From a virus (lineage: Duplodnaviria > Caudoviricetes), in the IMG/VR virus record IMGVR_UViG_3300022666_000342, positions 1-57,826 of that record: 57,826 nt of DNA. One strand, 5' to 3'. A model generated the notes under the pieces. It was not told the DNA's origin. It made no database searches and saw nothing but the letters and a program-made list of their open reading frames with translations. Shown here piece after piece: positions 11,817 through 57,077 of this stretch. The position numbers were made by a program, and so were the translations under genes. Within the stretch, counting starts at the first letter, position 1; the number at the start of each line of letters is the position of its first letter.

Positions 11817-11840
11817 AAAACAGTCCCACCCAAAAACGCA

Positions 11841-11914: not shown

Positions 11915-11952
11915 TTGATCTCTCATTTGATTTGTAGTACAATTCAAATGAG
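11915..11952 (+). promoter_or_regulatory. Sigma70-type promoter overlapped by an operator-like inverted repeat
   Basis: TTGATC(11915-20)-17 bp-TACAAT(11938-43); inverted repeat CTCATTTGA...TCAAATGAG at 11922-11952. Confidence 0.6.
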
Positions 11953-12019
11953 TAGCATTTACATCAAAAATATCATCTATAAACATCGTTTTAATCTTAA
12001 AATTAAAATTGAGGATTAC

Positions 12020-12280
12020 ATGGCCGGAAAACAGGGAAAATCAGGGGGGTGCCGTTCTGGAGCGGGAAGACCTCCAAAAAACGCCACCATCGGAAGGAAT
12101 TTTACTTTTGAAAATGGACAACAGGTGAAAATTTCAGTGACGGGGAATGGGTCTGTTCAAAAACTTCTGGCATGCCTGAAGTTAGAACGAGGGGACCCGG
12201 GATACAGGATGCGGTTACGCGGAGATAACGGCTGGGAGTTGACAATTGAAACAGCTACTGATATCAGAGGTGAGCCGTAA
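12020..12280 (+). CDS. Small basic protein with GG.R.GAGRP motif, possibly DNA-binding
   Basis: GAGG RBS, MAGKQGKSGGCRSGAGRPPK; lies upstream of the RM genes. Confidence 0.55.
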   Translation: MAGKQGKSGGCRSGAGRPPKNATIGRNFTFENGQQVKISVTGNGSVQKLLACLKLERGDPGYRMRLRGDNGWELTIETATDIRGEP

Positions 12281-12411
12281 CCTGATTTCTTATCTGGAAA
12301 ACTAAAGTAAAATCCACCGCAGCAAGAAAACAATTTAAATATTTTTCTGGGCAAGGTGGCTTGGTAAATTACCCAAAACCATCTATATTTTTCACCCAAG
12401 GAAGACCTGAA

Positions 12412-35023: not shown

Positions 35024-36228
35024 TACCGGCCTCCTTTCTGGCTTTCGTCCTGTTCCAACTCATATTCCCGATACAGGTCGGGGTTTTGAGCAAAGACTTC
35101 AGACAAAGCCTGGGTATAGTCCGCCTCCGTGTGGGCGGCCCGATACTTGGCGACTTCCACGTTGATCTTTTCCATCGTCTTGCCGGAGCCGATCCGGGTA
35201 GCGCCAGACCCCCGAGCCGAGAAAGCCTCAGCGAGCACAGTATCCGCCTTCTCCAGCAACTGAGAGAAGAACTGCGCATGCGACTGATCCTTCTCCTGAT
35301 CCATGCTGTACAGCCAGCGCAGCTGCTGCGCCAGCTGGCCCGACTCGCCCGGCATATGCGAAAACTTCGCAGCCGCCATCATCGTGAAGCGCTCCAGCTG
35401 GCGTTCCTGTTCGATGACGCTGATCCGGCCGGCCGCCCCTTCCAACTGCGCCTTATACTGGTCGCTCTCGGCCGTCTTGGCCGTCAGCTTCGCGTTGGCT
35501 TCCTGAAGCTGAGTCTTCATGGTCGCCATCTCGGAAGTGAACTGCGCGAACTTCTGATTGAACTCTGACATATCCGGCGCCTGCTGGCCGGCCGGCTGCA
35601 TAGAGCGCAGCCCGCCAAAAAGCTCAGCGAAAAACGCCCGGAACCCTTCCATGGTCAGCGGCTGATCGCCGCCGCCCTGGCCTCCGCCGTTCGTTCCGTT
35701 GCCCATAGAACCTCCATCTCCATCACCAAGATATAAAATACCGCCCCCCGCAGAATACAGAGCGGTTATTTCCCCGAAAAACGGGTAATTCGTGAGCGCG
35801 CCTCCGCCTACTTGGTTACGAACCTTCTGGTTTGTAACCTGGTCCGTCTGTTCCCAGTAGATCGACGGGGAGAAATAAGCAAACTCGTCTTCTTCGAGAG
35901 CCGCGCGCCCCTTTTTTGTCCAACCGAACGTAGCCCCCAGGCCGTTCGGCAACTCAAGCAAGTCCTTGTACCAACCAACCGCGCCGCCTTCGTGGTCAAT
36001 ATCCACCGCAAGGCGATCCCTGCGAATACCGCGATTTAAACGGTTGGCATAGTTGTCAAGGAATTCCTTGATCGTCTCGTCGTTTACCTCGTAAGCCCGT
36101 CCGTTGCGATAAAACGTCCCCTTCGGGAGGATCAAAATAGGCTCGCCGGCCAGCGCGCGCGCGGCAGACGACTTTCCACCCTCCATCGAATACAGGTCAA
36201 TAAAAAAATCACCCTGCGGTTTTGCCAT
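35023..36228 (-). CDS. Mu gpI-like prohead protease/scaffold
   Basis: VDIDH..AVGW...WT..G...FAYFSPSI...ALTNYPF protease motifs plus coiled-coil scaffold; GGAGGTGGAGG RBS. Confidence 0.85.
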   Translation of the reverse strand: MAKPQGDFFIDLYSMEGGKSSAARALAGEPILILPKGTFYRNGRAYEVNDETIKEFLDNYANRLNRGIRRDRLAVDIDHEGGAVGWYKDLLELPNGLGATFGWTKKGRAALEEDEFAYFSPSIYWEQTDQVTNQKVRNQVGGGALTNYPFFGEITALYSAGGGILYLGDGDGGSMGNGTNGGGQGGGDQPLTMEGFRAFFAELFGGLRSMQPAGQQAPDMSEFNQKFAQFTSEMATMKTQLQEANAKLTAKTAESDQYKAQLEGAAGRISVIEQERQLERFTMMAAAKFSHMPGESGQLAQQLRWLYSMDQEKDQSHAQFFSQLLEKADTVLAEAFSARGSGATRIGSGKTMEKINVEVAKYRAAHTEADYTQALSEVFAQNPDLYREYELEQDESQKGGR

Positions 36229-36246
36229 CCTCCACCTCCGGGAAAT

Positions 36247-36460
36247 AAAAAACGGGCCTGTCCCGCTTCCCAATATGGGAGCAGGGCAGGCCCGTGTGCG
36301 CACCTTCCTGGGCCAGCGAGCGCCGCGGTGGCCCGTAGGCTCGCGTCGCTCAGAAACAAAAAACGGGCCGCCGTCGCATAAAGCAACAGCGGCCCGTGTG
36401 TGTAATCGTCCAAGGCCTGGCCGGTGAGCGGTGGCCCGTAGGCTCGCGCCGGCCGTCAAT
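36247..36460 (-). promoter_or_regulatory. Tandem attenuator-like 5' leader of the head/tail operon
   Basis: Two ~103-nt units, each with an identical 21-mer (36428-36448 and 36325-36345) followed by an intrinsic terminator (36358-36397 and 36247-36295). Confidence 0.7.
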
Positions 36461-36467
36461 CAATAAG

Positions 36468-36496
36468 ATTATAGAACAAAAGGCCTAAGAAGTCAA
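36468..36496 (-). promoter_or_regulatory. Consensus sigma70 promoter for the head/tail operon
   Basis: Minus strand TTGACT-17 bp-TATAAT. Confidence 0.8.
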
Positions 36497-36501
36497 TACA
36501 G

Positions 36502-36576
36502 ATAGTTATGACTTTCGTCTGATAGACTTTGTACCTAAATTAAGGTAAAATGTAATCATAGACTGAAAATTAAGAA
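36502..36576 (+). promoter_or_regulatory. Cassette promoter/operator, copy A
   Basis: 62/75 identical and ungapped against 40588-40662; -10-like TAAAAT. Confidence 0.7.
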
Positions 36577-36593
36577 TTAAGGAGAATTAAAAA

Positions 36594-36923
36594 ATGAAAC
36601 TCACCGGAATGACCGCGACCAAAGAGAACAAAATCGGCAAGGTAGTCGAGGACCTCGACTGGACGCTGGAAATCGAGTGGAACGACGGCACCGGCAGCGA
36701 AGAGCAAATCACCGACATCGCCCTGCCCGCAAGCCGCAACAACGCCGCCATCAACATCGAAGCCAACCGCCGCCGCATCCAGGCCTTGACGGAAGAGATC
36801 AACGCCTACATCGCAGCGGTCACCAGCGAATGCACGGAAAAAGCCAACTGGCCCAACGCCGGCGAGCTGGGACGGCTGGTCGAAGCCCTGGAACACGCCC
36901 GCGAATACATGATGGGCGAATAG
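36594..36923 (+). CDS. Small array protein 1
   Basis: AAGGAG RBS; paralog of 36986-37303. Confidence 0.75.
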   Translation: MKLTGMTATKENKIGKVVEDLDWTLEIEWNDGTGSEEQITDIALPASRNNAAINIEANRRRIQALTEEINAYIAAVTSECTEKANWPNAGELGRLVEALEHAREYMMGE

Positions 36924-36985
36924 AACAAACAAAGGGCCGGCCCCACAAGGAGCCGGCCCACCTACCCACAAAAAGGAACAGAGAA

Positions 36986-37303
36986 ATGAACCTCACAAGC
37001 AAGACGGTCAACAAAGAAAATCGAAGCGGAGAAGTCCAAAGGGACTATGGCTGGCAACTGGTGGTCAAGTGGAGCGATGGAACCTACAGCGACGAACAGG
37101 TTTCCAGCTTCACACGAAACCAGGAAGACAAAACGGTCGAAACCGAATGCATAAAACGCCACATCAACATCTACATCGGCGACATCATCGCCTACAACGA
37201 AGTGACGACAGAGGACGCAGCAAAAAGCGACAGGATGGTAGAAAACCTACGGTTTATCGCGGAATCACTCGAAAAAGCCTACAGCCGCTTAATGGAAATC
37301 TAA
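36986..37303 (+). CDS. Small array protein 2
   Basis: MNLTSKTVNKENRSG...W.L.V.WSDGT.SDEQ aligns with protein 1. Confidence 0.75.
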   Translation: MNLTSKTVNKENRSGEVQRDYGWQLVVKWSDGTYSDEQVSSFTRNQEDKTVETECIKRHINIYIGDIIAYNEVTTEDAAKSDRMVENLRFIAESLEKAYSRLMEI

Positions 37304-37359
37304 AAACAAAGGGCCGGCCCCGAAGGGAGCCGGCCCACCCAACACCCAAAAGGAGACCC

Positions 37360-37716
37360 ATGAAAAACTTAACTGGACTGCAACTGACCGAAATCCGAAA
37401 CGGCATCATGAACCACGGCACCGTAATAGAAGATCGCGGAGAAACGATCATGGTCAACTGGGAACTGGCCTGGAACACGGGGATCTTCGAGGAGGTCTTC
37501 GAAGGGCTGAGAATCGACCGGGCCGGCCATGTGGACCCGGAGCAAGAGATGGAATTCTACGTCCGGGTAGCCGCCTGGAACGCCCATCTGCTGCACACCT
37601 ACTTCAAACGCAAGCAAATGGAAGACCGACCCGCTGAAGTAGACACGGAAACTATGCGGAAACTCGGCGCTGAACTGGATACCATCCTCAACACCCTGAT
37701 GGGACTCAAGAGCTAA
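37360..37716 (+). CDS. Small array protein 3
   Basis: AAAGGAG RBS; MKNLTG start; G.VIED.G....V.W similar to proteins 1 and 2. Confidence 0.7.
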   Translation: MKNLTGLQLTEIRNGIMNHGTVIEDRGETIMVNWELAWNTGIFEEVFEGLRIDRAGHVDPEQEMEFYVRVAAWNAHLLHTYFKRKQMEDRPAEVDTETMRKLGAELDTILNTLMGLKS

Positions 37717-37782
37717 AGCCACCGGGCCGGCGCCCCCAGGACGCCGGCCCACAAAAAAACAAAAGACGAAAGGACCCATAAG

Positions 37783-38043
37783 ATGAAAAACTTAACCGCC
37801 GCCGCGATCCAGGAGAAACTGCTCGAATACGCCGAACTGGCCCTCGAAGAGGAGACCGGAGAGTACATCACCACGCAGATGACAGAGGGAGTGATGAACG
37901 ACCTAAACCTCTACAGCGACGAAGCCTCCGAAGCCATCGAAGAACTGATCGATCGGATGGCAGTAGATCTGAGCGAACGCCTTCCGCAGAGACTGCCGGC
38001 CAGCACCCTGGCCGAATACGGCCGGGAGATTAAAGCCCTTTAA
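37783..38043 (+). CDS. Small acidic array protein 4
   Basis: MKNLT start; strongly Glu/Asp-rich. Confidence 0.7.
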   Translation: MKNLTAAAIQEKLLEYAELALEEETGEYITTQMTEGVMNDLNLYSDEASEAIEELIDRMAVDLSERLPQRLPASTLAEYGREIKAL

Positions 38044-38104
38044 TCCCCTCGGGCCGGCCCCGAAAGGAGCCGGCCAGCTAAAAACAAACGAAAGGAACAG
38101 GAAA

Positions 38105-38287
38105 ATGGAACTCACAAAACAGATCGAAGAAAGAAAACGTCAGATCGCAGATTATCTCGAAAGATTGAATTCCAGAATTAACATGTATGTGGAGGATCAC
38201 GAGAACCCGACAACAAGAAACGTCGATCTACTCGGAAAACTGATCGACTCCATCGATCAAGCCATGGATCTCATGCCGCCCGATTAA
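38105..38287 (+). CDS. Small array protein 5
   Basis: MELT start; resembles the C-terminal helical half of protein 1. Confidence 0.7.
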   Translation: MELTKQIEERKRQIADYLERLNSRINMYVEDHENPTTRNVDLLGKLIDSIDQAMDLMPPD

Positions 38288-38293
38288 TTACCC

Positions 38294-38334
38294 AGAAGAA
38301 ATCCGCCTGATTGAAAATCAGGCGGGTTTCTTCT
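38294..38334. terminator. Bidirectional terminator
   Basis: AGAAGAAATCCGCCTGATT-GAA-AATCAGGCGGGTTTCTTCT. Confidence 0.8.
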
Positions 38335-38527
38335 ATAAAAGTACACCCCCATTAAAAATCCCTTTTTAAGCCCTCGACTAACGCTTGATTAACACCTTCT
38401 AATTACAATAGACCTAACCATAACCCTGGCACAACTTAACTAACGTAAAGCGATCTTATGCGTTAGAATAGTATAAAATTAACCCGCCATTTATTTTATT
38501 TCCCTTGTTTCCCAGGAGGTAAGTACC

Positions 38528-40474
38528 ATGCCAACAAAAAGTTCAGTTGAAAAGCCAAAATCAGAAACGCCGCATCTTAACCCAAGTTCGCAGCCTCAAG
38601 TTTCAGGAATTGCGCCCGATGGATTCGAGACGCCCATGATCTCGCCCACTGGATTAAATGCCCACACTTTAAACCCTCGTACATTACCCTCGATTCAACG
38701 AACCTTCGGTAATCAAGCTGCAAGCCGAATGATTCAAACTCAAAGACTGAATCATTCCCCAATTCAGGCTTCACCGATGATCCAACGTCAGGTTGAAAAA
38801 ACTGACGGAAGCTCAGCTATGGGGAAATATAAGATTGGAAGAGTGAATAACGATTGGATTCCCATTAAATGGGAAGGAGGGGATACCGTTCAAGATTTAA
38901 TAACGCTCTCTGAAATTAAAGAAGACTGCTTGGTAAAAAAAATAACGACGGCTTCTTCTCCCTCTACATCATCATCGGGGAAAAAGCCAGTTAAAAAATC
39001 AAGCAACTCATTCGCGCAGCAGCAAGAACAACTTGAAAATCTAAGTAATCCAAAAGAAACAGAAAAAATAGTCGGTAAAAGCGCTGCTTTGGAGGCAAAT
39101 AGTTCTTTCATTTTAATACCTGCCTTAAATTCACCAGTAAATAAGAATCATATGGCAGTTCTCAGTTCATTGTCTCGCCTGGCTCGCACTTTTGGGAAGA
39201 AAATATCCAAAGGCGGTCAAGAAGCACAGGCTATCTTTATCGATGGGAAAATTGTGCTCACAGGCAATAGTAATGCAGAAACAGCCGCTTTAGCAGCTCA
39301 AATACCCCAAGAAGGAAGCACTGCATCCCAAACAAAAACAGCATTACGATCTTTGTTTGCACTCTCATACGCAAAAGAGGGACTTCCTAAGGAGCTATCG
39401 AGTACTAAAGGTGAGCGCTCTTATGAGGATCTTCAAGTTGCCCGCTCCCAAGATCTTAAAATTGTCGAGGATTGGATTGATTTAGTTTCCCTCCCTGATG
39501 AGCAAAAATTTGCCAAAGTCGTATCCAGTGTCCAAGAAGCACAAACAACTGCAGCTCCTTTAATTATTTTATCGACTCCAACAAGCGATTCTTCTGAAGA
39601 CAGTAGCAGCCCAAAAGTAGAAAAGAAAGGAGCAAAAAAGGTAGAGGGAAAGAAAAAAGTTGGGGAAAAAGCAAAAGAAAAGAAAGGAGCAAAAAAAGTA
39701 GAGGAAAAGAAAAAAATAGGAGGAAAAGCAAAGCTAGAAGAGAAAGAAGAGGTAAAAGAAAAGGAACCGGTAAAAGAAGAGAAATGGCACGCTGAACAAA
39801 AGCTGCTGCTTGTTCTGGCCGAATATCTAAAAAGGGAGATTCCGGTTTCACAAGTCGCAATAGCTGGGGTTAAATACCCTTGTAATTTATGCAAGGCAGA
39901 ACTCGCTCTCCACAAAAAAGCATTAAAAATGGCCTATCCTACGTTAAAAGTATCGTATGACAAGATAAAGGACTCTTCGAAAGAGTCTTCAATTTCTCAA
40001 AATACAACGATGACAACAAATACTACCACAACAGAACTCACTACCAATACATCAAGCTCTACATCAAGCATGAAGGATCTGGATTCTTTTGGATATGAAG
40101 AAGATAATCATACAAGAAAACCTATCGAAGACAAGAAAGTAACAGAGGGAAACGCAACGCCGGCGCATAAACGTCTTATTTCCGATAACTTGACTAAAGA
40201 AGAATCCTTCACGAAAGAAGAATCAGTCAAGAAAGAATTGCCGCCAGCTTTCGCACATTATCTTAAACTCTTACAAGACCCATCCTCCATGGTGCAATCC
40301 CAACCATCATCATCATCATCATCTTCTTCCTCAAAAGGAATAGAAGTAGAAAAAAGCGGGGAGGGAGAAAAGGGCGAAGAGAAAGAAAAGAGCGAAGAAG
40401 GAGAAAAGGGTAAAGGGGTAGAAAAAGGCGGAGAGGAAAAAAAGGGGGAAAATGGCGACGGAGAGGAAGATTAG
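38528..40474 (+). CDS. Putative Zn-dependent nucleic-acid deaminase toxin with eCIS-cargo-like N-terminus
   Basis: HAEQKLL (39788) ... KYPCNLC (PCNLC at 39878-39892); N-terminal IQRTFGNQAA...PIQ..PMIQR; low GC; AGGAGGT RBS; K/E/S low-complexity tracts. Confidence 0.7.
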   Translation: MPTKSSVEKPKSETPHLNPSSQPQVSGIAPDGFETPMISPTGLNAHTLNPRTLPSIQRTFGNQAASRMIQTQRLNHSPIQASPMIQRQVEKTDGSSAMGKYKIGRVNNDWIPIKWEGGDTVQDLITLSEIKEDCLVKKITTASSPSTSSSGKKPVKKSSNSFAQQQEQLENLSNPKETEKIVGKSAALEANSSFILIPALNSPVNKNHMAVLSSLSRLARTFGKKISKGGQEAQAIFIDGKIVLTGNSNAETAALAAQIPQEGSTASQTKTALRSLFALSYAKEGLPKELSSTKGERSYEDLQVARSQDLKIVEDWIDLVSLPDEQKFAKVVSSVQEAQTTAAPLIILSTPTSDSSEDSSSPKVEKKGAKKVEGKKKVGEKAKEKKGAKKVEEKKKIGGKAKLEEKEEVKEKEPVKEEKWHAEQKLLLVLAEYLKREIPVSQVAIAGVKYPCNLCKAELALHKKALKMAYPTLKVSYDKIKDSSKESSISQNTTMTTNTTTTELTTNTSSSTSSMKDLDSFGYEEDNHTRKPIEDKKVTEGNATPAHKRLISDNLTKEESFTKEESVKKELPPAFAHYLKLLQDPSSMVQSQPSSSSSSSSSKGIEVEKSGEGEKGEEKEKSEEGEKGKGVEKGGEEKKGENGDGEED

Positions 40475-40547
40475 TAAAACCGATAAAAAATAACAGGTCT
40501 CAATTCTGACTTTGCTTTCCCAGCCAATCACACAATTTAGACAACAG

Positions 40548-40580
40548 GAACCCGCCGGATTTTCAATCCGGCGGGTTTTC
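40548..40580. terminator. Intrinsic terminator, inverted near-copy of 38294-38334
   Basis: GAACCCGCCGGATT-TTC-AATCCGGCGGGTTTTC. Confidence 0.8.
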
Positions 40581-40587
40581 AATTTAT

Positions 40588-40662
40588 ATAGTTATGACGT
40601 TCGTCTCATAGCTATTATACCTAAAATTAGGTATAATAGAAACGTAGACTGAAAATTAAGAA
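40588..40662 (+). promoter_or_regulatory. Cassette promoter/operator, copy B
   Basis: TATAAT inside a palindrome with 13-bp arms, CTATTATACCTAA-AA-TTAGGTATAATAG (40612-40639). Confidence 0.75.
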
Positions 40663-40680
40663 ACGAGAGGAGCCCTTAAA

Positions 40681-40970
40681 ATGTCAGATTTTGAATGCCC
40701 AGCCTGCGGAAAGAAACTCAGCCAGAAAACAGTAAATACGCCCTACAACGGAAACATCTTCGCATGGCAATGCCCGAAGTGCCAGTGCGTAATCGCAGAA
40801 GACATCACGCTGGGAAGCTCCTTCTCCCTGGTAGACAACACGATGACCGAAGACGAAGAAGCCTTCGCCCGCGCCATCCCCTACGACCTGACCTGCCTGA
40901 GCAGCCGCGGAATCTCCGACGGCACGGGTTCTTCGACCCGATCACCCGCAAAATCACGCAGGTCGGCTAA
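40681..40970 (+). pseudogene. Zn-ribbon protein with apparent single-base frameshift near 40916
   Basis: CPAC...CPKC. A plausible C-terminus RRHGFFDPITRKITQVG* lies in another frame and stops just before the hairpin/RBS unit. Confidence 0.5.
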
Positions 40971-41030
40971 ACAAACCAGCGCCGCCGGTCAGCCGGCCGG
41001 CGGCGCCCATCACAACAAAAGGAGACCAAC

Positions 41031-41255
41031 ATGAAAACCATACCGACCAAAAACGAATACTGGATGAAGCTGCTACCCCCGCATGTCCTGGCCCGCGTCA
41101 TCATCGAGATCGATGAAGCGAACCACGAACAAGACGAGGAAATCTACGACGTAGTTCTTGAAGGGCAATCAGTGCTCATCCTGACATGCGGTCAGGATCT
41201 GGCCCACGACCTGCTCACAAAGGCCTTCCTGGATCGCAACCGGCAGGTGGTATAA
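41031..41255 (+). CDS. Small acidic protein
   Basis: Hairpin 40979-41006 and AAAGGAG RBS; paralog of the next gene. Confidence 0.7.
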   Translation: MKTIPTKNEYWMKLLPPHVLARVIIEIDEANHEQDEEIYDVVLEGQSVLILTCGQDLAHDLLTKAFLDRNRQVV

Positions 41256-41449
41256 TGAGCGCCGCATGGATGAGCCGGCTCAGCAACGCAGCGCTCGCCC
41301 AGATGGTCGCCGCCCTCAATCTGGCCGGCGACCCCGAAGACCAAGACGACGAAGAGATCCGGGCCAGCGCCCGGATCGTCCTCGACGACCGGATCGGCCA
41401 GGAAGACGCCGCCCGAGAGATAGAAGAAGCTTACAGAAGGATGGTGTGA
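41255..41449 (+). CDS. Small acidic protein
   Basis: TAATG coupling; WM..L....LA...DEEI...VL....GQ..A pattern shared with the previous gene. Confidence 0.65.
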   Translation: MSAAWMSRLSNAALAQMVAALNLAGDPEDQDDEEIRASARIVLDDRIGQEDAAREIEEAYRRMV

Positions 41450-41451
41450 AA

Positions 41452-41805
41452 ATGCCCCGAGCAGGATACTACAGCCTTCCGATCAACGCAGGAAATCAAG
41501 CCCCCCTAAAGGCCATCTGCGCCGCGCACGGCTGGCCGGCCAACTCTACCGGCTACACCGCAGCCTTCCGCCTCGCCCTGGCCTCCGCCCTGGGCGAGAT
41601 CGACCCGGAGATCCGCCCCCAGCCGGAGCGCTCCGAAGTCGGCGAGGATTGGGTGATTTTAAAAATCGACGACCCCACCATCCGCCGGCGGCTCGACGCC
41701 CTGGTGACAAGACTGCATCTGGAGCCCGGCACCCGGGCCGACCGGGAAGCGCTTCAATTCGCCATCCTTCTCCTGAACTACGCCATGCTCCCCCCGCAGG
41801 AATAA
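41452..41805 (+). CDS. Hypothetical protein, possibly a tandem ribbon-helix-helix regulator
   Basis: Two strand-helix-helix-like halves (YYSLPIN...AAFRLAL; WVILKID...EALQFAI); weak. Confidence 0.5.
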   Translation: MPRAGYYSLPINAGNQAPLKAICAAHGWPANSTGYTAAFRLALASALGEIDPEIRPQPERSEVGEDWVILKIDDPTIRRRLDALVTRLHLEPGTRADREALQFAILLLNYAMLPPQE

Positions 41806-41839
41806 AAAGACGGGCCCGGATCGCCTCCGGGCCCGTTTT
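41806..41839. terminator. Bidirectional terminator at convergent junction
   Basis: AAAGACGGGCCCGGA-TCGCC-TCCGGGCCCGTTTT. Confidence 0.8.
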
Positions 41840-41863
41840 CTATCTGCAAACGTTTGCAGATAG
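41840..41863. promoter_or_regulatory. Palindrome copy 4 (CTATCTGCAAACGTTTGCAGATAG)
   Basis: Exact core extended to 24 bp; abuts the terminator. Confidence 0.85.
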
Positions 41864-41881
41864 TTGCGATCCGACAGAAAC

Positions 41882-42139
41882 CTATCCCGCCGCTGTTGCA
41901 TCCCCGTCCAACACTTGTTGCATCCCGTCAGCCCGGCACTCCTCGCGCGGCCGCTCCAACGCGCCCGACAGCATCACCGACCAGCTCGATACCCCCGCAG
42001 CGCCCCCGCCAGTCTTGACCAACTGGATCAAAAACACGCCCTCGGGGAGAGAAAAAATCCGATTTAAAAAGCTTGCCATCGCCCGCGGGAGAGTCACCAT
42101 TGCCGTCTGTCCCCCTCCAGGTTTTAAAGCCATACCCAC
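41882..42139 (-). CDS. Hypothetical protein
   Basis: GGAGG RBS; overlaps the portal stop. Confidence 0.45.
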   Translation of the reverse strand: MGMALKPGGGQTAMVTLPRAMASFLNRIFSLPEGVFLIQLVKTGGGAAGVSSWSVMLSGALERPREECRADGMQQVLDGDATAAG

Positions 42140-44322
42140 CGCCCTCCTTCGTACTTTTGGAGATCACACCGGCAATTGCCGTCGCATGGGGTTCCATGTC
42201 CCGGCAACGTCCCCTGGGTAAAAGCAATCATCTGATTCCAGGAAGCGTATTCCCGCGCGTAACGCGGGCATTCCGAACAATGCTTCGCTAAATTGTCCAT
42301 CACCCAGCGAACCGGCACCGTCGCCCGCTCCACCGGCGTCATCCGCTGGCCGGCCCCGGCCCAGATAGAATGCCACACATGCCCCGCATACAGCCCTCCG
42401 CGCGCGTAGCTGTTGGTAGCCTCTTTGACCGCTGCAATGAACTCCGCGCCGGCCTCCTGCCGCCGGCCGGCCTTCAAAAGGAGCAGAATCGCCGCAATAC
42501 GCCCCTCCAGCGTTCCCGCAATGTCCCCGAATAGAGTGCCGCCCCCATCCGGATTGACGCGCCGGATTCTATCCGGCCCATCATATCCAATATAGGAGTC
42601 GGCCATATCCGTCTCTCGGCTCAGCGCTGCGTTCTCCTCGGACCCGCCCGCCGGCTTCCCAAAAGCCAGCCAGAAGGCCGCCGCGATGTCGATGACCGAA
42701 CGCTCCCGAAAAAGGAGCATCCCCACCAGCGTCCAATCGTCGATCTTCGATCGAAGATCCGCCTCGGTCGTCTCTGGCCCCAGGCCAGCGATGGCGTCCG
42801 CCGCGTCCCCGGCCCAGTTTTCCAGGTTGGCCCGCTGCGTCTGGGCATTGGCGTCTGCCGCCGCCGTGTATCGTTGCTGGCGCTCCGCAGCCGGCACCAC
42901 CGCAAAGGTCTCAGTGCCGCCGAGCATGGCTTCTTGGGCATCCTCTTCTGGCTCGACCTCTTCGCCAGCGGCCGGATCTTCTCCGTCCCTCTCACCGTCC
43001 TCCTCGCCGCCCTGGGGCGGGTCCTTTTCCTCTGCTTCCCCGTCTTTCCCGTCAGATAGGGCCGGCTTCCCGGTACCCGGCCGGCCGGCCGGCTTCGGCT
43101 CGTCGTCCTCTACCCCCTCAGCCACCTCAGTGGGCATGCCGGGAATCAAAGAACGCAGGAAGACTTCCGCGTCCCGATCAGGAGTGAAAGCCCCGGCCCC
43201 CGACAGGGACCCGATAAATTGCCCGATCGCCCCCAGATCCAGCGCCCTGGGCGAAGAGCAGGTAAGCACCGGCATCCCGGTCACCCCCCGCATCGAATTC
43301 CAGCGCATCAGGTAAGGGATCGCCTTCCGATTGAAGACCGACATGATCGAGTTGAGATAGGCCTCGATTGCCAGCCAATAAGCCTCCATCAGAGTGCCGG
43401 CGAGGGATTGCGTCCCCGTTTCGCGGAGCCCCACCAGCATAAACTGCGCCAAAATCGACCGGGCCATCTCCAGATCTTTGCGCATGATGGTCGCCCCCAA
43501 GGTGTCGTCCACCGTCCCCTGCGGACCGCCCAGGTCAATGCTCCACCCAGATGGAAGGTGGGCGCCCATAACCTCATCGTTGTAAATCTGTTCTACCAAA
43601 TCCTTCGCTTTCTGCTCGTCGGATTTCTGACCTTCTTCCTCAATTGTCGTCGCGCCGTTCGGCAGCGTGACAACCGGGAAGCCGGCCCACCGACGATACA
43701 ATCCCATCCCCTCAATCTGCTCCAGCCGCCTCTTGAATTGATACGCCCGCGCCGCCGCCCGATAAATCGAAAGCCCCTCCGGGATATTCCCATCCCGACA
43801 AGTTCGGAAATGCAAACTGCGCTCGACCGGGATGATGGCATTGGAGCCCTTGAGCGTGTATTGCTCCATTGCAGTGAGCTTTCCGGTCTCGTCATCGATC
43901 ACCCACTGATACCATGAATGCTGCGGACGAAAGGCAATCTCCCCAAAGCCTACCGTCCCATCCGACCGTCTGCGCATGACCATCTCAAACCACGCCCACC
44001 CGTAAGTGAACATGGTGCAGATGTCATCTAACAGGTCAGGAAACGACATGTCAGGCATCGTCGAAAGGCAATCCCACACAAACTCAGCCGCCGTCTGGTC
44101 TCCCCGCGTCTTTCTGCCCCCAGGAACGACGCGCCACTGCACCTTCAAGATGGGCAGCGTCAGAATTTGATGCATGGCGATTCCCGTGGGATCTGTGTGC
44201 CGAATTTCGTCATACACCCGGGCCCCAGCCGGCCAGCGGAAGCGCGGGTCTGGATCGATATAAAGCAGCCGGCCCCACTGAGACAGACCAGAGGACCCTA
44301 ATTCCTTAAATTTTCCTGGCAT
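42124..44322 (-). CDS. Portal protein (Mu gp29/DUF935-like) fused to a MuF-like minor head domain
   Basis: YGWAWFEMV...PEGLSIYR...MARSILAQF portal motifs; acidic linker; C-terminal W...HCSEC...LPG..TPCDGNCRC. Confidence 0.8.
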   Translation of the reverse strand: MPGKFKELGSSGLSQWGRLLYIDPDPRFRWPAGARVYDEIRHTDPTGIAMHQILTLPILKVQWRVVPGGRKTRGDQTAAEFVWDCLSTMPDMSFPDLLDDICTMFTYGWAWFEMVMRRRSDGTVGFGEIAFRPQHSWYQWVIDDETGKLTAMEQYTLKGSNAIIPVERSLHFRTCRDGNIPEGLSIYRAAARAYQFKRRLEQIEGMGLYRRWAGFPVVTLPNGATTIEEEGQKSDEQKAKDLVEQIYNDEVMGAHLPSGWSIDLGGPQGTVDDTLGATIMRKDLEMARSILAQFMLVGLRETGTQSLAGTLMEAYWLAIEAYLNSIMSVFNRKAIPYLMRWNSMRGVTGMPVLTCSSPRALDLGAIGQFIGSLSGAGAFTPDRDAEVFLRSLIPGMPTEVAEGVEDDEPKPAGRPGTGKPALSDGKDGEAEEKDPPQGGEEDGERDGEDPAAGEEVEPEEDAQEAMLGGTETFAVVPAAERQQRYTAAADANAQTQRANLENWAGDAADAIAGLGPETTEADLRSKIDDWTLVGMLLFRERSVIDIAAAFWLAFGKPAGGSEENAALSRETDMADSYIGYDGPDRIRRVNPDGGGTLFGDIAGTLEGRIAAILLLLKAGRRQEAGAEFIAAVKEATNSYARGGLYAGHVWHSIWAGAGQRMTPVERATVPVRWVMDNLAKHCSECPRYAREYASWNQMIAFTQGTLPGHGTPCDGNCRCDLQKYEGGRWVWL

Positions 44323-44332
44323 ATGATTCTCC

Positions 44333-46036
44333 TTAATTCCATTCGCTTCCGCCAGGCTTCCGAACACCGGCCTGGTCGGGCAACGGAGCCGGCCTGGGCA
44401 TTGCCAGCGCCGCCTCACAGTAAACTTCCGCCAGAGCAAAGTGGTCGGCCTTCGAGCCTTCGGTATAGCGGGCGACCATCTTCCCATCCGCGGCCTTTTC
44501 CAACACCCGCATCGGCGCTTTCATCTGCTCGTAATAATCCGGTACATCCCGAATGTTCAACGGCAGGACCCGATGCCCGTCCATCAATTCGGCGTACATC
44601 TGGTCGAAAGCCCGCGTGCGATCAATCGTCACCGTCCCCTCCTCTTGATTGGGAACGGCCATCTCCGCCTTTTTCTCACTGGCCGTCGATCCGAAGAATG
44701 CCAGCCAGACTAGCCCCCTGGGGAATTGCGCCTGCAGCTCGCGATCTTTCCGGGTTTCCGGCAATCCATCGATGACCAACGTCTTCACATTGAACCGCCG
44801 CAGCTGGCCGGCCAGCTCTTCGAACGATTGCACCGCACCGGCCCACCGAAGGGGAGCGACCTCGCTGCCTCTGGGCAACGCCCGGATCACGATGTGGAGC
44901 AAACTTCCCACATCGCAGCCAGCCACCGTCGCCTCACGCCCCACCGGTCCCAGGGCATACTCCCGCCGCACCGAATCCAGCAACGCATCATCAATCCGAC
45001 TGCCCCTGGGAGTGTAGACTTCCCCCAGATCCTGGTTGAAACACTCCCGGCGCTTGGTCTCGTCGATGACTTGCAACCCCCGCACCACATCAATGAGCTG
45101 GGTGACCGGGCTGAAAAACTTCGTCAGGTGATAACCGACAATATCTCGCCCAGGGAAACGAGGCACCCATCGCCCCGCCGCTGTCCGATCCAGCTCGGCC
45201 CCGCAACGCCGGCACGCCACAAAAGCGCGCCCTTCTTTCATCCCATGCCACGCCGCTGGCCGCTCCAGAGCATCCCACTCGATCACCACACCCTGGATGG
45301 TCATTACCTGCAGCTCGCCGCACCGCGGGCAGGGAACGAACCACTCCCGCTGATCGGAAAGCTTCCACCGTTCATCGATTCCCATGTCGGCATAGGTTGG
45401 CGTTGATATATCCAGCTCTTCGGCGAACTTACTATGCCCGAGCCGCTTCAGCGCGATGGCCGGCGCTCGCTGGTCCATCTCGTCCAGCTCATCAAAGACC
45501 AACAAGTCCACCGCCACCGACTTCAACCCCGGCGCGCGCCCGTCCGGCGAGACCTGCCCACCGCGCAGATAGAGAAACCGGTTGCGAATCCTCTTCAAGG
45601 TGACCCGATCCGCCCCCCGCCTTCTTTTTTCGCTCCCATCGCCAGGGCCATCCCCAACGATGGAGCCGAGATAGGGAGAAGCCTCCAACGCCCCGCCCAA
45701 CCGCTCGGTAGAAAAATCCGTGATGTGCCGATCCGTAGGGAAGAGGTACATCACGGTCTCTTGCCGCACGTCCGCTGCATGCAAAGCGCGCGAAACCGCA
45801 TATTCAGACGCGCCCATCTGGCTGGATTTGTAAAGCACCAGATGCCGCGCCTTTTCGCGGTACAGATCGACCAGATAGGGATGGGTCTGCAGATCGAATA
45901 GACTGTCAGGCCGCAAATAGGACCGGTTGATAATCGTCCAGGTCAGGAGATCCATCTCGCCGCCGTTCGATCGGCGAGACTGCTCCGCCTGGATCTCCGC
46001 GTAGCGGATCAGATCCTCACGCCGGCCCATCGCCAT
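44333..46036 (-). CDS. Terminase large subunit (lambda gpA-like family)
   Basis: KSSQMGASE, LLVFDELDEM, ISTPT, SDQREWFVPCPRCG, AGCDVG, DHF. Confidence 0.92.
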   Translation of the reverse strand: MAMGRREDLIRYAEIQAEQSRRSNGGEMDLLTWTIINRSYLRPDSLFDLQTHPYLVDLYREKARHLVLYKSSQMGASEYAVSRALHAADVRQETVMYLFPTDRHITDFSTERLGGALEASPYLGSIVGDGPGDGSEKRRRGADRVTLKRIRNRFLYLRGGQVSPDGRAPGLKSVAVDLLVFDELDEMDQRAPAIALKRLGHSKFAEELDISTPTYADMGIDERWKLSDQREWFVPCPRCGELQVMTIQGVVIEWDALERPAAWHGMKEGRAFVACRRCGAELDRTAAGRWVPRFPGRDIVGYHLTKFFSPVTQLIDVVRGLQVIDETKRRECFNQDLGEVYTPRGSRIDDALLDSVRREYALGPVGREATVAGCDVGSLLHIVIRALPRGSEVAPLRWAGAVQSFEELAGQLRRFNVKTLVIDGLPETRKDRELQAQFPRGLVWLAFFGSTASEKKAEMAVPNQEEGTVTIDRTRAFDQMYAELMDGHRVLPLNIRDVPDYYEQMKAPMRVLEKAADGKMVARYTEGSKADHFALAEVYCEAALAMPRPAPLPDQAGVRKPGGSEWN

Positions 46037-48863: not shown

Positions 48864-49655
48864 TTACCTCACAATCCCCAGCGACCGCGCCGACCCGGAA
48901 ACCAGATCGACGTAGGTCGCATACACGTCCAGATCCCGACTCACCAGGAGCCGAGACAGGTACGACGCCGCCCAGGTACTCATGGCCGTGTTGACCATGA
49001 GCGACTGCTGCTCCATCACCGCCAGATCGGCGCAGCTCAAAGGATGCTCCGCTTCCTCCTGAACCTCCAGCAACTCAGGATGCTGGATCGACGGAAGAGG
49101 GATCTCGTTGCACATTCCCATCAATACCATCGGTTTTTGAACGCTGCTGTTCCCGAGCAAGACCTGTCCAGAATCCCGATGATTTCCACAATCGAGCCAC
49201 CATACAGAACTATTTTTGTGCGCCTCATGGATCGCCGTCCGCCCTGACGCGCCGTCGACACACCCAATAACGATTTTTAAAATCCTCGGGCCAAATTCCG
49301 ACGTCGCTTCTCTGAAAAAAGCTTCCTGCGTTTGATCGTTAAAACTCTGGATCGCAAATTCTATATTCAGGCCGAAAGCCAGACTATACCGACGCGCCAG
49401 GGCCTCAGCCTTCGGCATCCCCACCTCAGCCGGGCAAAAATTCTGCCGGCCAAGATTCTTCCTCTCAACAGAGTCATAATCGACAAAACCGACCTTCCCC
49501 GTCATCCCTTTTCGATCCAAAAGGTGATAAGCCAACCGGGCAATGTGAAGCGCCATAAAGGACCCCGTTCCCCCACACCCCACCAGCATGATGGCGTACC
49601 CCTTTATCTCTCCCAACTCGACGCGCGCCCGCTTTTCAATTTTTATCTGCTCCAT
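48864..49655 (-). CDS. ThiF/E1-like adenylyltransferase (PRTRC ThiF family)
   Basis: VGCGGTGS, D.D.VE.KNLGRQNF, IGCVD, WLDCGN, LSCA (candidate catalytic Cys), QSLMVN. Confidence 0.9.
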   Translation of the reverse strand: MEQIKIEKRARVELGEIKGYAIMLVGCGGTGSFMALHIARLAYHLLDRKGMTGKVGFVDYDSVERKNLGRQNFCPAEVGMPKAEALARRYSLAFGLNIEFAIQSFNDQTQEAFFREATSEFGPRILKIVIGCVDGASGRTAIHEAHKNSSVWWLDCGNHRDSGQVLLGNSSVQKPMVLMGMCNEIPLPSIQHPELLEVQEEAEHPLSCADLAVMEQQSLMVNTAMSTWAASYLSRLLVSRDLDVYATYVDLVSGSARSLGIVR

Positions 49656-50275
49656 GAAAATTCCCCCATGTCACGCATCTCCCCTATTCCCCCAAATAAA
49701 ACCGTCGCCGGAAGATCGACAAAATCACCGTAAATTCCCAACCGGACCCGGATCTCAGGCTGCCGCTCGAAAATCAAACCCATAACCGCGTAAAAGCGAA
49801 ACCCCAACTCATCTTTATTGTCGGTACCGCTAAAAAACGCTCGATAATTGCAATGTGAATGCAGGTCGCAAAACGTCTCAGGACCATCGCCCCCTAAATA
49901 TTGGAGCGAGTCAGCGGTCGCCGTCTGAACCGGCCGCGTCAACCGCACCATGCCGTTTTGAAACGAATAATGGTATCCGGCCTCAACCGGCTTAACAGCC
50001 GCCTGCCGGCGAGCGTCTTCCAGAGTAGTCAGGAGCAACCGCTCAGGGATTCTCCCGTGTCGGATTTTCACCCAGGGCCGGATCTCGGGCAGCCCCGCCA
50101 CGCGGACGCGGGAGATCGGAACGCACACATCAAAGTGGGAATTCTCTGCCCGCTTGAACACCCCATTCCCGGCCAAAACATAACCGTAAGCCTTCCCCTC
50201 CAGGGCAGGGACCTCGTCGCCCATGATTCCGTAACATACGGGATTGAACTTCATCGCACTAATAACTGCTTCCAT
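49643..50275 (-). CDS. JAB/MPN metalloprotease (PRTRC protein A-like)
   Basis: YVLAGNGVF N-terminus; E...DLHSH...AFFSGTD.KDE JAMM motif. Confidence 0.9.
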   Translation of the reverse strand: MEAVISAMKFNPVCYGIMGDEVPALEGKAYGYVLAGNGVFKRAENSHFDVCVPISRVRVAGLPEIRPWVKIRHGRIPERLLLTTLEDARRQAAVKPVEAGYHYSFQNGMVRLTRPVQTATADSLQYLGGDGPETFCDLHSHCNYRAFFSGTDNKDELGFRFYAVMGLIFERQPEIRVRLGIYGDFVDLPATVLFGGIGEMRDMGEFSWSR

Positions 50276-50960
50276 TCAGAACCTCCCCCAAAGTGAGACC
50301 GGCCTCAATGAGATCATTCATGGGGTAAGCAGACACCCCCTCAATCTCCCGCCACAATTCGGTAACCCTGGAATTATGGCGCTTGCTTTTTTGATTCCCC
50401 AGATCGTTATTGAAATAGCTCTCAAAAAATTCCTTAATGGCCCCTGAAATGCCGTCCAGAGACGGAGCCGGGAAATCGGCCGTTCCCTGACACACATGAC
50501 CGTCGTCGTATATGTTGGGATAAGGAGCCTTAAAAAGCCTCGATCCCATATCCACCGGCCGTTGCTTGACCGCAAAGACCATAAAAGTTTTGGCCGTGAT
50601 AAACAAGAGCGGCGGACACGGAATCTTCCCCGACCAGCCCCCGTCCATCCTCACCTTCCGCTGGGAAGGTGGAAGATAGACAGCCGCTTCTTCGCGTCCA
50701 TTGGCCCGGCGGTAAAAAATTGTATTTTTAGGGAGCAAAGGAGTCTCGATTAAAATGCCGCCAAAAACGGCAGCGAGATCCTCAGGAGAAACCTCAAACG
50801 TCGCATAAGCTTGCCCGCCCTCGTTGTGTTTCGTCAAAATGATCGACTCCGAATAAACCCGTATCTCAGCCCGTAAGACCTGCGTGTCAGGCTTCTCCGC
50901 CGGCACCGAGAAACCGCCCAGGGCCATCTCAAACACGTTGGAAGCATGAACTCTAAGCAC
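50259..50960 (-). CDS. Prokaryotic E2 family D protein (PRTRC protein B-like)
   Basis: PPLLF...VFAVK.RP...LFKAPYPNIYDDGHVCQG...FFESYFN; GTG start after GAGGAGG. Confidence 0.85.
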   Translation of the reverse strand: MLRVHASNVFEMALGGFSVPAEKPDTQVLRAEIRVYSESIILTKHNEGGQAYATFEVSPEDLAAVFGGILIETPLLPKNTIFYRRANGREEAAVYLPPSQRKVRMDGGWSGKIPCPPLLFITAKTFMVFAVKQRPVDMGSRLFKAPYPNIYDDGHVCQGTADFPAPSLDGISGAIKEFFESYFNNDLGNQKSKRHNSRVTELWREIEGVSAYPMNDLIEAGLTLGEVLNGSSY

Positions 50961-51855
50961 GATATTCCTCCTCGACTGAAGCAAAGAACTTCGACAGAAG
51001 CTGCCTGGAATTTTCAGTGGATTCGTACCAGTTTGTGAAACGATAAAACCGCTCAACATCATCCCGAATCCGAGCGTAAAAATCCGCATACCGCCTGATC
51101 ACATCATAATCCACCACCATCTCAGTATCATCGTAGCCACAGTCTACGCGCCACGCCGAAGGAGTGTCTATAAACGGATTATTCGTGTTCCCCAGAACGC
51201 ACTGGTATAGAAAGTCAACGCCTGAAAAAATGCCCGTCTCTTTTCTGAACCTATCGAGAGTCCAGTCCTCGTTCTCAAAGAAAAAGAAACCCGGATCGTC
51301 GTCATCGGAATCTTCCCCCAGCAGACCGGCTTCCGAAAGCAGCTCGGAATACAGAATAGCGATATCTTCCTCGCCGCTGTAATCTTCAATCGGAATAGAA
51401 GCCCGACCTGAAACCGCGTCCATGCACGCGACTAAAACCCGCTCGTATTCTTCCAATTCGTCGAAAGATGCTCCCCCACGCGGAACGCCAAACGAGACGA
51501 ATGGAATTCCATACATTAAAACATCCGGCTCGGACCCATATTCAAAGTCCCAGGTATCAAATATCCCATCCAACATCGCCAGATCCACCGGGAAGAGTTC
51601 TGCGTCAACTTTATCGACGAACTCCGCTTGAACCTCAACAAAACTCAGATCTCCCCGAAGATTCTCGCCGAATAGCAGTTTGTGAATTCGGCGCAGCCGA
51701 TACGGCCCCGTAGTCCAGGAAAGCAATAAATCTCGGGCCGGCCTGACGCACTGCAACCCCGAAGGGAGCACATCAAAGAGCCGGTTATACAGCTCGTAAT
51801 AACTCAAAATCCCTGAGGAACTTCCCCCGCTGGTATCGGTTTTAAAGATTGACAT
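50953..51855 (-). CDS. Acidic hypothetical protein within the Ubl cassette
   Basis: Coupled to the E2 gene; D/E-rich; occupies the slot of the helical accessory gene of PRTRC loci. Confidence 0.65.
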   Translation of the reverse strand: MSIFKTDTSGGSSSGILSYYELYNRLFDVLPSGLQCVRPARDLLLSWTTGPYRLRRIHKLLFGENLRGDLSFVEVQAEFVDKVDAELFPVDLAMLDGIFDTWDFEYGSEPDVLMYGIPFVSFGVPRGGASFDELEEYERVLVACMDAVSGRASIPIEDYSGEEDIAILYSELLSEAGLLGEDSDDDDPGFFFFENEDWTLDRFRKETGIFSGVDFLYQCVLGNTNNPFIDTPSAWRVDCGYDDTEMVVDYDVIRRYADFYARIRDDVERFYRFTNWYESTENSRQLLSKFFASVEEEYRA

Positions 51856-56736: not shown

Positions 56737-56738
56737 GA

Positions 56739-57077
56739 CTAACCTCCCCATAAAAGAGCAGAAAGGTCAACTTTAGAATCGACGGGCCGGTCCTCCGGCT
56801 CGTCGATCCCAAACAAATCCCGATACTCTTGAGGCATGTGAGCCATAGCAAGAGCGGTATCAACTTCCTCCTGCCGCAGCGTGTCCAGAGAAACAACGGT
56901 CCGAGTCACTCCACAGCCGCAGCGCGGGTACATAAACCGCAATTGTCCATTCCAGGACCCCACTGGAACCTTTCCGCACTCGGTGCAACGATATCCAATC
57001 TGTAAAACCCGGTACGAGAGGGACGCACCGGTGCTCAACAGGACGCCTCGCTCGTTAAAGCTAACGATCTTGGGCAT
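56739..57077 (-). CDS. Zn-finger hypothetical protein
   Basis: CTEC...CGC; GAGGAGG RBS. Confidence 0.6.
   Translation of the reverse strand: MPKIVSFNERGVLLSTGASLSYRVLQIGYRCTECGKVPVGSWNGQLRFMYPRCGCGVTRTVVSLDTLRQEEVDTALAMAHMPQEYRDLFGIDEPEDRPVDSKVDLSALLWGG

Follow-up and report, generated by a model that had tools for sequence, protein, structure and literature searches.

Organisation of the Locus

The stretch analysed here, called the window, comprises the 57,826 nucleotides of the virus record IMGVR_UViG_3300022666_000342, and corresponds to C30:8273-66098 of a host genome of 7.97 Mb (136 contigs, 56.5% guanine-cytosine (GC) content) whose probable origin is a biofilm metagenome. It carries an integrated siphovirus-like prophage, with genes for a large terminase, a Mu-type portal, a Mu-like protease/scaffold, the major capsid protein, tail completion proteins and a tape measure of 2099 amino acids (aa). 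To the right of the window lie a large serine recombinase gene and then the host genes for NusG, L1 and L10, and to the left lie other host genes. The subject of this study is a gene of this prophage whose product, P0001, consists of an N-terminal leader, a middle region, a putative deaminase domain and a low-complexity tail. The elements of the gene are the following (positions in the window):

38303..38325, no strand assigned: GC-rich hairpin upstream of the P0001 cassette, which closes the preceding small plus-strand gene and marks the start of the low GC (hairpin scan, GC drop)
38514..38519, plus strand: AGGAGG ribosome-binding site (RBS), 8 nt ahead of the P0001 ATG (read from the sequence)
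38528..40474, plus strand: open reading frame (ORF) of P0001, 648 aa (ORF reading; paralog with 35% identity, E 3e-70)
38528..38800, plus strand: leader, aa 1-91, which starts MPTKSS, has low AlphaFold2 (AF2) confidence and holds LNPRTLPSIQRTFGNQAASRMIQ (GN at aa 61-62), then PIQ and MIQR
38801..39124, plus strand: middle region, aa 92-199, with two short predicted strands and then a Ser/Lys-rich part; conserved with the paralog only, no family found
39125..39967, plus strand: predicted divergent deaminase domain of the cytidine deaminase (CDA) fold, aa ~200-480, in the order helix 1, strand 1-2 hairpin, a large insert, the helix with HAE, strand 3, the helix with PCxxC and strand 4
39221..39268, plus strand: EAQAIFIDGKIVLTGN, aa 232-247, predicted strand 1-2 hairpin, whose E, Q and N are the same in all 11 family members
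39548..39784, plus strand: Lys/Glu-rich low-complexity part of the insert, aa 341-419, with a predicted local distance difference test score (pLDDT) of 25-31
39788..39892, plus strand: HAEQxLL ... G-x-K-x-PCxxC, aa 421-455, with what are predicted to be the catalytic Glu and the residues that bind zinc, kept without change by all 11 family members (Pfam OTT_1508_deam at aa 421-464, E 0.047)
39968..40471, plus strand: C-terminal tail, aa 481-648, rich in Ser, Thr, Glu, Lys and Gly; no predicted helix 4 or strand 5
40547..40579, plus strand: 15-pair hairpin 3' of the stop codon, terminator-like, with a weak T-run and a stem like that of the upstream hairpin (hairpin scan)

The GC of the ORF is 0.413, as against 0.581 in its 10-kb flanks. 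The trough over the gene (0.435, 0.402 and 0.456 in 1-kb bins, with 0.54 and 0.62 in the adjoining ones) is confined to 38.3-41.0 kb of a 5.6-kb plus-strand block that lies between the minus-strand portal and protease genes. A second assembly of the probable source run places positions 36000-43000 inside a single contig of 61,894 bp with 0 differences; built from the same reads, it does not constitute independent data, and it argues that the junctions between cassette and phage are not the artefact of one assembler. The gene of P0001 is a self-contained, compositionally foreign gene within the prophage.

An initial annotation, made from the sequence alone, had described here a low-GC ORF with its own terminators, a HAE...PCxxC signature preceded by EAQAIFIDGKIVLTGN with a Lys/Glu-rich stretch between the two, and the N-terminal motifs IQRTFGNQAA, PIQ and MIQR. 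All of these are present: HAE at aa 421-423 and PCxxC (PCNLC) at aa 451-455, and the N-terminal motifs at aa 56-65, 78-80 and 84-87, respectively. The terminators would correspond to the two hairpins listed above.

The Leader and Its Counterparts in the Host

The leader motifs had been associated with extracellular contractile injection systems (eCIS), and this link is supported by the host proteins that carry DUF4157. The host genome contains 23 matches to eCIS_core (DUF4157), none of them on contig C30, whereas none of 14 control genomes has any and, among 120 other genomes of the phylum, 22 carry DUF4157 with 1-4 matches each. A [QR]xxGN motif lies upstream of the domain in 19 of the 20 host proteins with an N-terminal DUF4157, and two leader types can be told apart, hxRxQGNRHVQ (13 proteins) and LQLQRxVGNxA (6 proteins). 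The host eCIS_core set also includes an open frame of 3822 aa that carries the eCIS_core domain three times, as well as several tandem arrays (e.g., C83:22238-33704, C9:40413-58060 and C11:49767-62979).

A hidden Markov model (HMM) built solely from the six DUF4157 proteins of the LQLQRxVGNxA type, and searched against 61,465 six-frame ORFs of the host, returned these six, five further proteins, P0001 (E 1.8e-5, 26.1 bits) and a paralog of P0001 encoded elsewhere in the genome (E 8.1e-5). When aa 1-110 of P0001 were shuffled, 0 of 5000 sequences reached the real score (28.7 bits, as against 12.5 for the best shuffle). All 13 proteins of this leader type, P0001 and its paralog included, start M-[PSN]-x-[KSH], and the distance from the initial Met to GN, measured by script, is 62-66 residues in 12 of them (62 in P0001); in the paralog it is 62 when counted by eye from MPAKNT. 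Beyond the GN motif, 9 of the 13 carry a hQR motif.

Seven of these 13 proteins lie outside the eCIS_core matches of the genome, and PF13699 was absent at E <= 0.01 from the five host leader proteins of this group that were scanned with Pfam. The proteins outside the eCIS_core matches that were returned by this HMM, or by one mixing both leader types, match Peptidase_M91 together with metallopeptidase families (below cut-offs), SLT+SH3+PG_binding, Peptidase_C15+LysM, Het-C+LysM, or no domain that is known. Low GC is likewise seen in several of the genes with this leader (0.39-0.49, as against 0.51-0.59 in their flanks). Judging from these sequence comparisons, the leader of P0001 is very probably homologous to that of one subgroup of host DUF4157/eCIS_core proteins. 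Taking into account that it has been kept between P0001 and the paralog, which are only 35% identical, it can be argued that the leader is in use.

Contractile Injection Loci

The host genome has three loci in which Pvc16_N lies beside sheath and tube genes, on contigs C61, C52 and C1 (possibly C59), as would be expected if, as the initial annotation supposed, the host owned a contractile system. Those on C52 and C1 are complete, with Pvc16_N, sheath, gp19 tube, CIS_tube, GPD/base_V spike, gp25, Baseplate_J, Tail_P2_I and PASTA-bearing distal proteins; both are flanked by housekeeping genes, and neither head genes nor DUF4157 genes were seen in them. The contig end truncates the C61 locus. The prophage itself is non-contractile, as had been noted: its contig has no sheath match, the three that the genome contains being located on other contigs.

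In other genomes of the phylum, the LQRxxGN leader was found on the DUF4157 ORF in 8 of 28 loci fetched. In three of five genomes checked (G017, G079 and G088, which belong to three genera and two families), the leader-bearing DUF4157 gene lies 2.65-2.71 kb from Pvc16_N.

In published work, DUF4157 is reported to be strongly eCIS-specific and N-terminal to toxins, and EAT11, in which DUF4157 is joined to a deaminase, to kill E. coli and yeast (PMC8213781). The baseplate proteins of a Streptomyces contractile injection system (CIS) have been reported to co-purify with a DUF4157 protein (PMC11126660), and cargo loading into AlgoCIS to require a disordered N-terminal domain, DUF4157 being dispensable (bioRxiv 10.64898/2026.05.27.728243). 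In a machine-learning study, the eCIS signal is described by composition only, with no conserved sequence detected (PMC11297309).

The Predicted Deaminase Domain and Its Relatives

The columns that are invariant in an alignment of 11 family sequences are the E-x-Q and N of EAQAIFIDGKIVLTGN, HAEQxLL, and G-x-K-x-PC-xx-C. A strict HAE(20-40)PCxxC pattern occurs in 2 of the 61,465 six-frame ORFs of the host, namely P0001 and the paralog, and the looser HxE form in 8. In P0001 an insert of ~170 aa separates strand 2 from the HAE helix, and its Lys/Glu-rich part contains 24 Lys and 15 Glu among 79 residues; the distance from the GN hairpin to HAE is 90-170 aa in all 11 family members.

Pfam returned a single family for P0001 at E <= 0.1, OTT_1508_deam (PF14441). 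This family gives sub-threshold matches to P0001 and three relatives (four of seven family members, E 0.002-0.05, 14-18 bits), and was absent from the matches in 400 other genomes of the phylum (E <= 1e-5) and in controls. For four of the six relatives (P0002, P0005, P0006 and P0007) deaminase families were the sole Pfam matches, again sub-threshold at 13-18 bits, with APOBEC_N, SNAD4, Toxin-deaminase and dCMP_cyt_deam_1 also appearing on the HAE-PCxxC segment. The sole non-deaminase match in the family is the Nuf2_DHR10-like one that P0003 has as its only match, and P0004 has no Pfam match.

Structure prediction points in the same direction as the initial annotation, which had expected a deaminase fold. 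The AF2 model of P0001 aa 95-490, made with the 11-sequence alignment, has a mean pLDDT of 55 (core 60-87), and the order of its elements runs from a helix and a strand hairpin through a helical insert and the unmodelled Lys/Glu stretch to the helix with HAE, a further strand and the helix with PCxxC. The same order is found in the model of a compact relative of 245 aa, P0004 (pLDDT 70.5, predicted template modelling score 0.75). With a full-library structural aligner, solved CDA-fold deaminases occupied 16 of the first 18 rows obtained with the P0001 model, the best being blasticidin-S deaminase (Z 5.6, root-mean-square deviation 3.4, 97 residues aligned), and 12 of the top 12 rows for the P0004 model, headed by blasticidin-S deaminase (Z 6.8, 117 aligned) and a Pseudomonas syringae type VI secretion cytidine deaminase toxin (Z 6.7, 119 aligned). 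Lower rows for P0004 contain guanine deaminase, ADAT2/3, CDA and TadA, and DddA comes further down at 4.6. The ESM Atlas gave leads that all fall below the bar of the tool: on features, a cluster of OTT_1508_deam (0.83), and on structure, a fungal cluster of OTT_1508 (template modelling score 0.51), a cluster joining MuF with Toxin-deaminase, and a cluster of eCIS_core proteins. Taking into account that one superfamily tops both structural lists, together with the motifs and the Pfam leads, the modelled core of P0001 (aa ~200-480) is, with good probability, a very divergent CDA-fold zinc deaminase.

P0001 had been described as an orphan, which does not hold. An exhaustive HMMER search of 1.84 billion cluster representatives returned seven proteins, the query included. 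The closest (670 aa, E 9e-53) is the paralog in the host genome (C5:11361-13403), with 35% identity over 521 columns (E 3e-70). Its neighbours are a kdp operon with two-component regulators on one side and a Na+/H+ exchanger on the other, phage genes are absent from its vicinity, and its GC is 0.462, as against 0.549 in its flanks. The other five (E 3e-6 to 1e-3) match P0001 only at aa ~400-487; two of them come from Corallococcus, and UniRef labels one as containing a CMP/dCMP-type deaminase domain. In these distant relatives the leader is missing and the N-terminal region, where there is one, is of another kind, and thus the catalytic module behaves as a movable toxin domain. A GDCLFEAL stretch seen by eye in two of them resembled an OTU domain, which Pfam at E <= 0.1 did not confirm.

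A word-indexed homolog search with the whole of P0001 recovered the paralog only, and the same type of search with the family alignment (8000 candidates) only two proteins, both already known. PADLOC gave no match for P0001, the paralog, P0004 or the downstream ORFs, and PHROGs gave none for P0001. The lineage is rare, with 7 clusters among the 1.84 billion representatives, and has a very large insert in its catalytic core.

Comparison with Known Systems

Deaminases of the OTT_1508 clade have been tied to delivery by Photorhabdus virulence cassettes (PVC) and to a PVC metallopeptidase, with immunity-less versions in prophages; the clade is predicted to act on cytosine, and C-terminal degeneration is described as normal in the OTT_1508 and XOO_2897 clades (PMC3239186). 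For fungal OTT_1508-like proteins, A-to-I RNA editing has been reported (PMC12754623). As described in PMC3239186, the clade (PF14441) shares with P0001 the HxE and PCxxC motifs, with a conserved G and K just ahead of PC, the degenerate C-terminal elements, a strand-2/helix-2 insert (in fungal members) and the immunity-less, prophage-borne condition, to which the PVC-type delivery of the clade may be added; it is also the Pfam family matched most often in the P0001 family. However, the GxxK before CxxC given for the clade (PMC3239186, Table 1) is off by one position from the G-x-K-x-PC of the P0001 family, and the strand-4/helix-4 loop signature of the clade is absent from P0001, in which low complexity follows a putative strand 4 (LKVSYD) and no helix 4 is predicted. 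In some relatives of P0001, His-rich stretches follow the putative strand 4. P0001 also differs by its insert with the Lys/Glu run, and no family member exceeds the 27-bit Pfam cut-off. Taking into account the shared traits, on the one hand, and the missing loop signature and the cut-off, on the other, the payload of P0001 is nearest to the OTT_1508 clade, yet not a member of it.

EAT11 of Amycolatopsis (PMC8213781) resembles P0001 in having an N-terminal leader followed by a deaminase module, eCIS-type loci in the host and no clear immunity gene. Unlike such eCIS toxins, P0001 is devoid of DUF4157 and its gene lies within a prophage, not in or beside a contractile operon. The AlgoCIS cargoes Cgo1 and Cgo2 have, like P0001, a disordered N-terminal domain ahead of the usual position of DUF4157, and their loading is reported to require that domain alone, DUF4157 being dispensable, which makes a leader-only cargo plausible. 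The leader of P0001 has no sequence similarity to theirs, and AlgoCIS needs an AAA+ protein, which was not seen in the two complete host loci.

Temperate phages carry MuF polymorphic toxins with a deaminase toxin module in the head-morphogenesis region. P0001 resembles these in position; it is, by contrast, unfused, on the opposite strand and provided with its own RBS, and the neighbouring portal has no detected Phage_Mu_F. The deaminase toxins of type VI secretion systems (T6SS) of the DddA/SsdA type (PDB 6u08, 8e5d and 9c63) match the P0004 model in fold (Z 4.6, 4.4 and 6.7), but they have no detectable sequence similarity to the P0001 family and use another delivery module. These toxins have cognate immunity proteins.

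Each component has a precedent: the PVC-linked OTT_1508 deaminases, the immunity-less prophage copies, the eCIS toxin that joins DUF4157 to a deaminase, and leader-dependent loading. What is new is a candidate leader-only cargo devoid of DUF4157 on a non-contractile temperate phage, with a chromosomal paralog, as well as an explicit sequence definition of the leader and a deaminase lineage that is rare and whose catalytic core takes in a very large insert.

Proposed Role of P0001

It is proposed that P0001 is a modular effector, carried as lysogenic-conversion cargo by a siphovirus-like prophage and acting as a leader-only cargo of a contractile injection system of the host, a chain to which, taken as a whole, we give about an even chance. 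The leader would address P0001 to one of the three contractile (eCIS-type) machines of the host and would direct the unfolded protein into the tube of the particle, the phage thereby adding a cargo to the arsenal of its host. Loaded particles would be freed on lysis and would inject P0001, and the deaminase might then edit a base in the nucleic acid of the target cell (C to U, or A to I), damaging or recoding it, with toxicity as the presumed outcome. The lack of a conserved immunity partner fits a non-self target organism, possibly a eukaryote, or inactivity until delivery. The cargo function in itself appears to us evenly poised. A further step, which we regard as tentative and rather doubtful, is that a temperate non-contractile phage carries an effector built for the contractile particles of its host, so that phage and eCIS would cooperate; prophage-driven lysis could even be the release route of the loaded particles, and the payload would be the first of its rare deaminase clade to have been studied. 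Effectors of type III and type VI secretion are well known to travel on prophages. No comparable prophage-borne case for eCIS appears in the excerpted eCIS literature on DUF4157, in which no search was aimed at this question.

The initial annotation had likewise read the gene as an effector addressed to a host eCIS. The leader homology and the host loci speak for this address; a DUF4157 domain and a contig shared with any contractile locus, on the contrary, did not appear, and loading is a step that we infer. Thus, its observation is partly confirmed and its interpretation partly supported.

Several results weigh against the proposed role. As regards the leader, an HMM mixing both host leader types reached P0001 with only E 0.15, and a search with aa 30-135 of P0001 against 5.8 billion proteins returned the query alone; therefore, the similarity is specific to one subtype and visible only with a local profile. 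DUF4157 (PF13699) was not found in P0001 at E <= 0.1, and the leaders of AlgoCIS are reported to be system-specific (bioRxiv 10.64898/2026.05.27.728243), so that their transfer to the LQRxxGNxA motif is an analogy. As regards the machines, neither the gene of P0001 nor any host DUF4157 gene shares its contig with one of the three contractile loci, and no AAA+ protein that might act as loader was seen in the complete loci on C52 and C1. Moreover, adjacency to Pvc16_N failed in two of the five genomes checked (in G031 the genes are on different contigs, and in G108 the leader ORFs are on a contig devoid of Pvc16_N), and these five form part of the seven genomes owning leader-bearing loci, a small sample chosen by feature. 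As regards the enzyme, every deaminase family missed the Pfam cut-off for P0001 (PF14441 with 14.1 bits versus 27), and all the structural Z values are below 8, a range that the aligner itself rates as common and that lies under the level it considers safe. Foldseek, which the initial annotation had recommended for the payload, gave no match against PDB at E <= 0.001 for the model of P0001 (aa 95-490) or that of P0004, and a PDB sequence-profile search with the family alignment found no deaminase, with only a chance-level methyltransferase (E 0.1). The prediction for P0001 lacks helix 4 and strand 5 of the deaminase fold, and thus the enzyme could be crippled.

This last point bears on the view that P0001 is the decaying, inactive remnant of a toxin, with expanded low-complexity runs and with the C-terminal half of the fold lost. 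The long Lys/Glu and Ser/Thr runs would agree with decay, as would the low confidence of the model, in which pLDDT is below 50 for 185 of 396 residues. However, the frame of 648 codons is intact and its RBS strong, the catalytic and family-invariant residues are all kept in both copies, and C-terminal degeneration is, as indicated above, normal in the OTT_1508 and XOO_2897 clades (PMC3239186), so that we consider decay quite improbable.

The points concerning the machines bear on a different possibility, namely that P0001 is a delivered or secreted effector whose leader has a non-contractile role, as a processing or export signal of the DUF4157-type toxins of this lineage, the contractile loci being coincidental. 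In the 136-contig assembly of the host no contig carries both a leader-bearing gene and a contractile locus, 23 DUF4157 matches stand against three contractile loci, the AAA+ loader was not seen in the two complete ones, and the excerpted work on the signal describes no conserved eCIS leader sequence. It is nevertheless unlikely, taking into account the high eCIS specificity reported for DUF4157 (PMC8213781), the co-purification of a DUF4157 protein with CIS baseplate proteins in Streptomyces (PMC11126660), and the distance of less than 3 kb between leader-bearing DUF4157 genes and Pvc16_N in three of five genomes.

If P0001 is indeed a leader-only cargo of a host contractile system, a phage would be able to re-arm the eCIS of its host, and a short leader (M-P-x-K ... 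LQRxxGNxA, with ~62 residues to GN) would mark cargo even where DUF4157 is missing, giving a sequence handle on a loading signal that published work gives by composition only. In addition, the payload would be a very divergent deaminase, and such enzymes have repeatedly been turned into base-editing tools. Even if this reading does not hold, the gene remains a clear case of an immunity-less toxin cassette that moves horizontally.

Neighbouring Genes and Other Features of the Prophage

Three neighbouring genes are of interest in relation to P0001:

35023..36459, minus strand: Mu-like head protease/scaffold, one edge of the plus-strand block (Pfam, PHROGs)
40681..41034, plus strand: zinc-ribbon-like ORF of 117 aa with its own RBS and a TATAAT-like box, 207 nt past the P0001 ORF (ORF list, Pfam, sequence reading)
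42124..44487, minus strand: Mu-type portal of 787 aa, extended at its C-terminus, which bounds the block on the other side (Pfam, PHROGs)

The initial annotation had held that no immunity-sized ORF follows the gene; the 117-aa ORF does so, and is itself followed by ORFs of 74 and 87 aa. The 117-aa ORF has no homolog elsewhere in the host genome, and none beside the paralog.

The portal had been named a portal-MuF, a label that has to be withdrawn, as its Pfam match is Portal_Mu only and Phage_Mu_F is absent at E <= 0.1. Regarding the suggestion that the gene occupies the usual locus of MuF toxins, the position between portal and protease stands, but not the fusion, P0001 being encoded by an ORF of its own, which runs on the opposite strand and has its own RBS. 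The position has a bearing on the possibility that P0001 is packaged in the head or tail of the phage and injected with its DNA, as MuF-fused toxins are thought to be, for which the MuF-deaminase cluster among the structural leads (below the bar of the tool) might also be invoked. This is highly improbable: the gene has its own start and no fusion to a head protein, the chromosomal paralog has no phage around it, and minus-strand-facing terminator-like hairpins, scattered through the plus-strand block, set it apart from the late genes. A near-consensus promoter-like site (11/12) precedes the protease gene.

It could also be thought that, within the lysogen, the deaminase serves the phage through superinfection exclusion, through counter-defence or by mutating DNA or RNA that enters the cell, and that the leader is a leftover of the origin of the gene. 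The gene is a self-contained prophage cassette, with its own RBS and hairpins, and the same prophage has a restriction-modification island and an E1/JAB/E2 set. However, the paralog carries the same leader in a plain chromosomal context (kdp operon, Na+/H+ exchanger) devoid of phage genes, and the preservation of the leader between two copies of only 35% identity argues for its use, which makes this role improbable.

With respect to the portal, its 787 aa compare with open frames of 470-508 aa in its three distant relatives (29-31% identity), which were found in 300 other genomes of the phylum; viral and genome contig collections gave none. The extra ~250 C-terminal residues end in a Cys-rich part, and their sole match is phrog_24776 (function unassigned).

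Within the plus-strand block, positions 36594-38287 (plus strand) hold four or five small ORFs with similar N-termini (MKLTG.., MNLTS.., MKNLTG.. and MKNLTA..), for which no family was found, separated by near-identical GC-rich hairpins at 36934-36959 and 37311-37336. A short GC-rich hairpin at 41810-41862 matches four other sites of the 61.9-kb contig, and is thus a terminator-like element that recurs in the phage.

A second low-GC island (0.40-0.42) is found at window positions 11118-15871 (plus strand), with a 668-aa HSDR_N + N6_Mtase protein and a 503-aa Methylase_S protein, which has the appearance of restriction-modification cargo. At 48864-51089 (minus strand), a ThiF-like E1, a JAB-like protein (weak, E 2e-4) and Prok-E2_D are adjacent and form a phage-carried ubiquitin-like conjugation set, whose E1 also matches the PADLOC 'E1-E2' models. 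The same element contains DUF2637, FtsK/SpoIIIE and a Gp3-like recombination directionality factor (window 4477-5466, 8054-9391 and 55246-56751); the first two are typical of conjugative integrative elements.

The 61,894-bp contig of the second assembly spans C30:~7642-69535, that is, from ~630 bp to the left of the window to ~3.4 kb to its right, and ends just past the serine recombinase gene; it may break at the attachment sites, which would fit a mixture of integrated and excised or empty forms. To the left of the prophage, at C30:3-2561 (minus strand), a host gene cut by the contig end contains an 853-aa ORF with SpvB, FG-GAP and TcdB_toxin_midN, resembling the B component of Tc toxins, and is adjoined by another host gene, which codes for a BTAD-AAA-TPR regulator.

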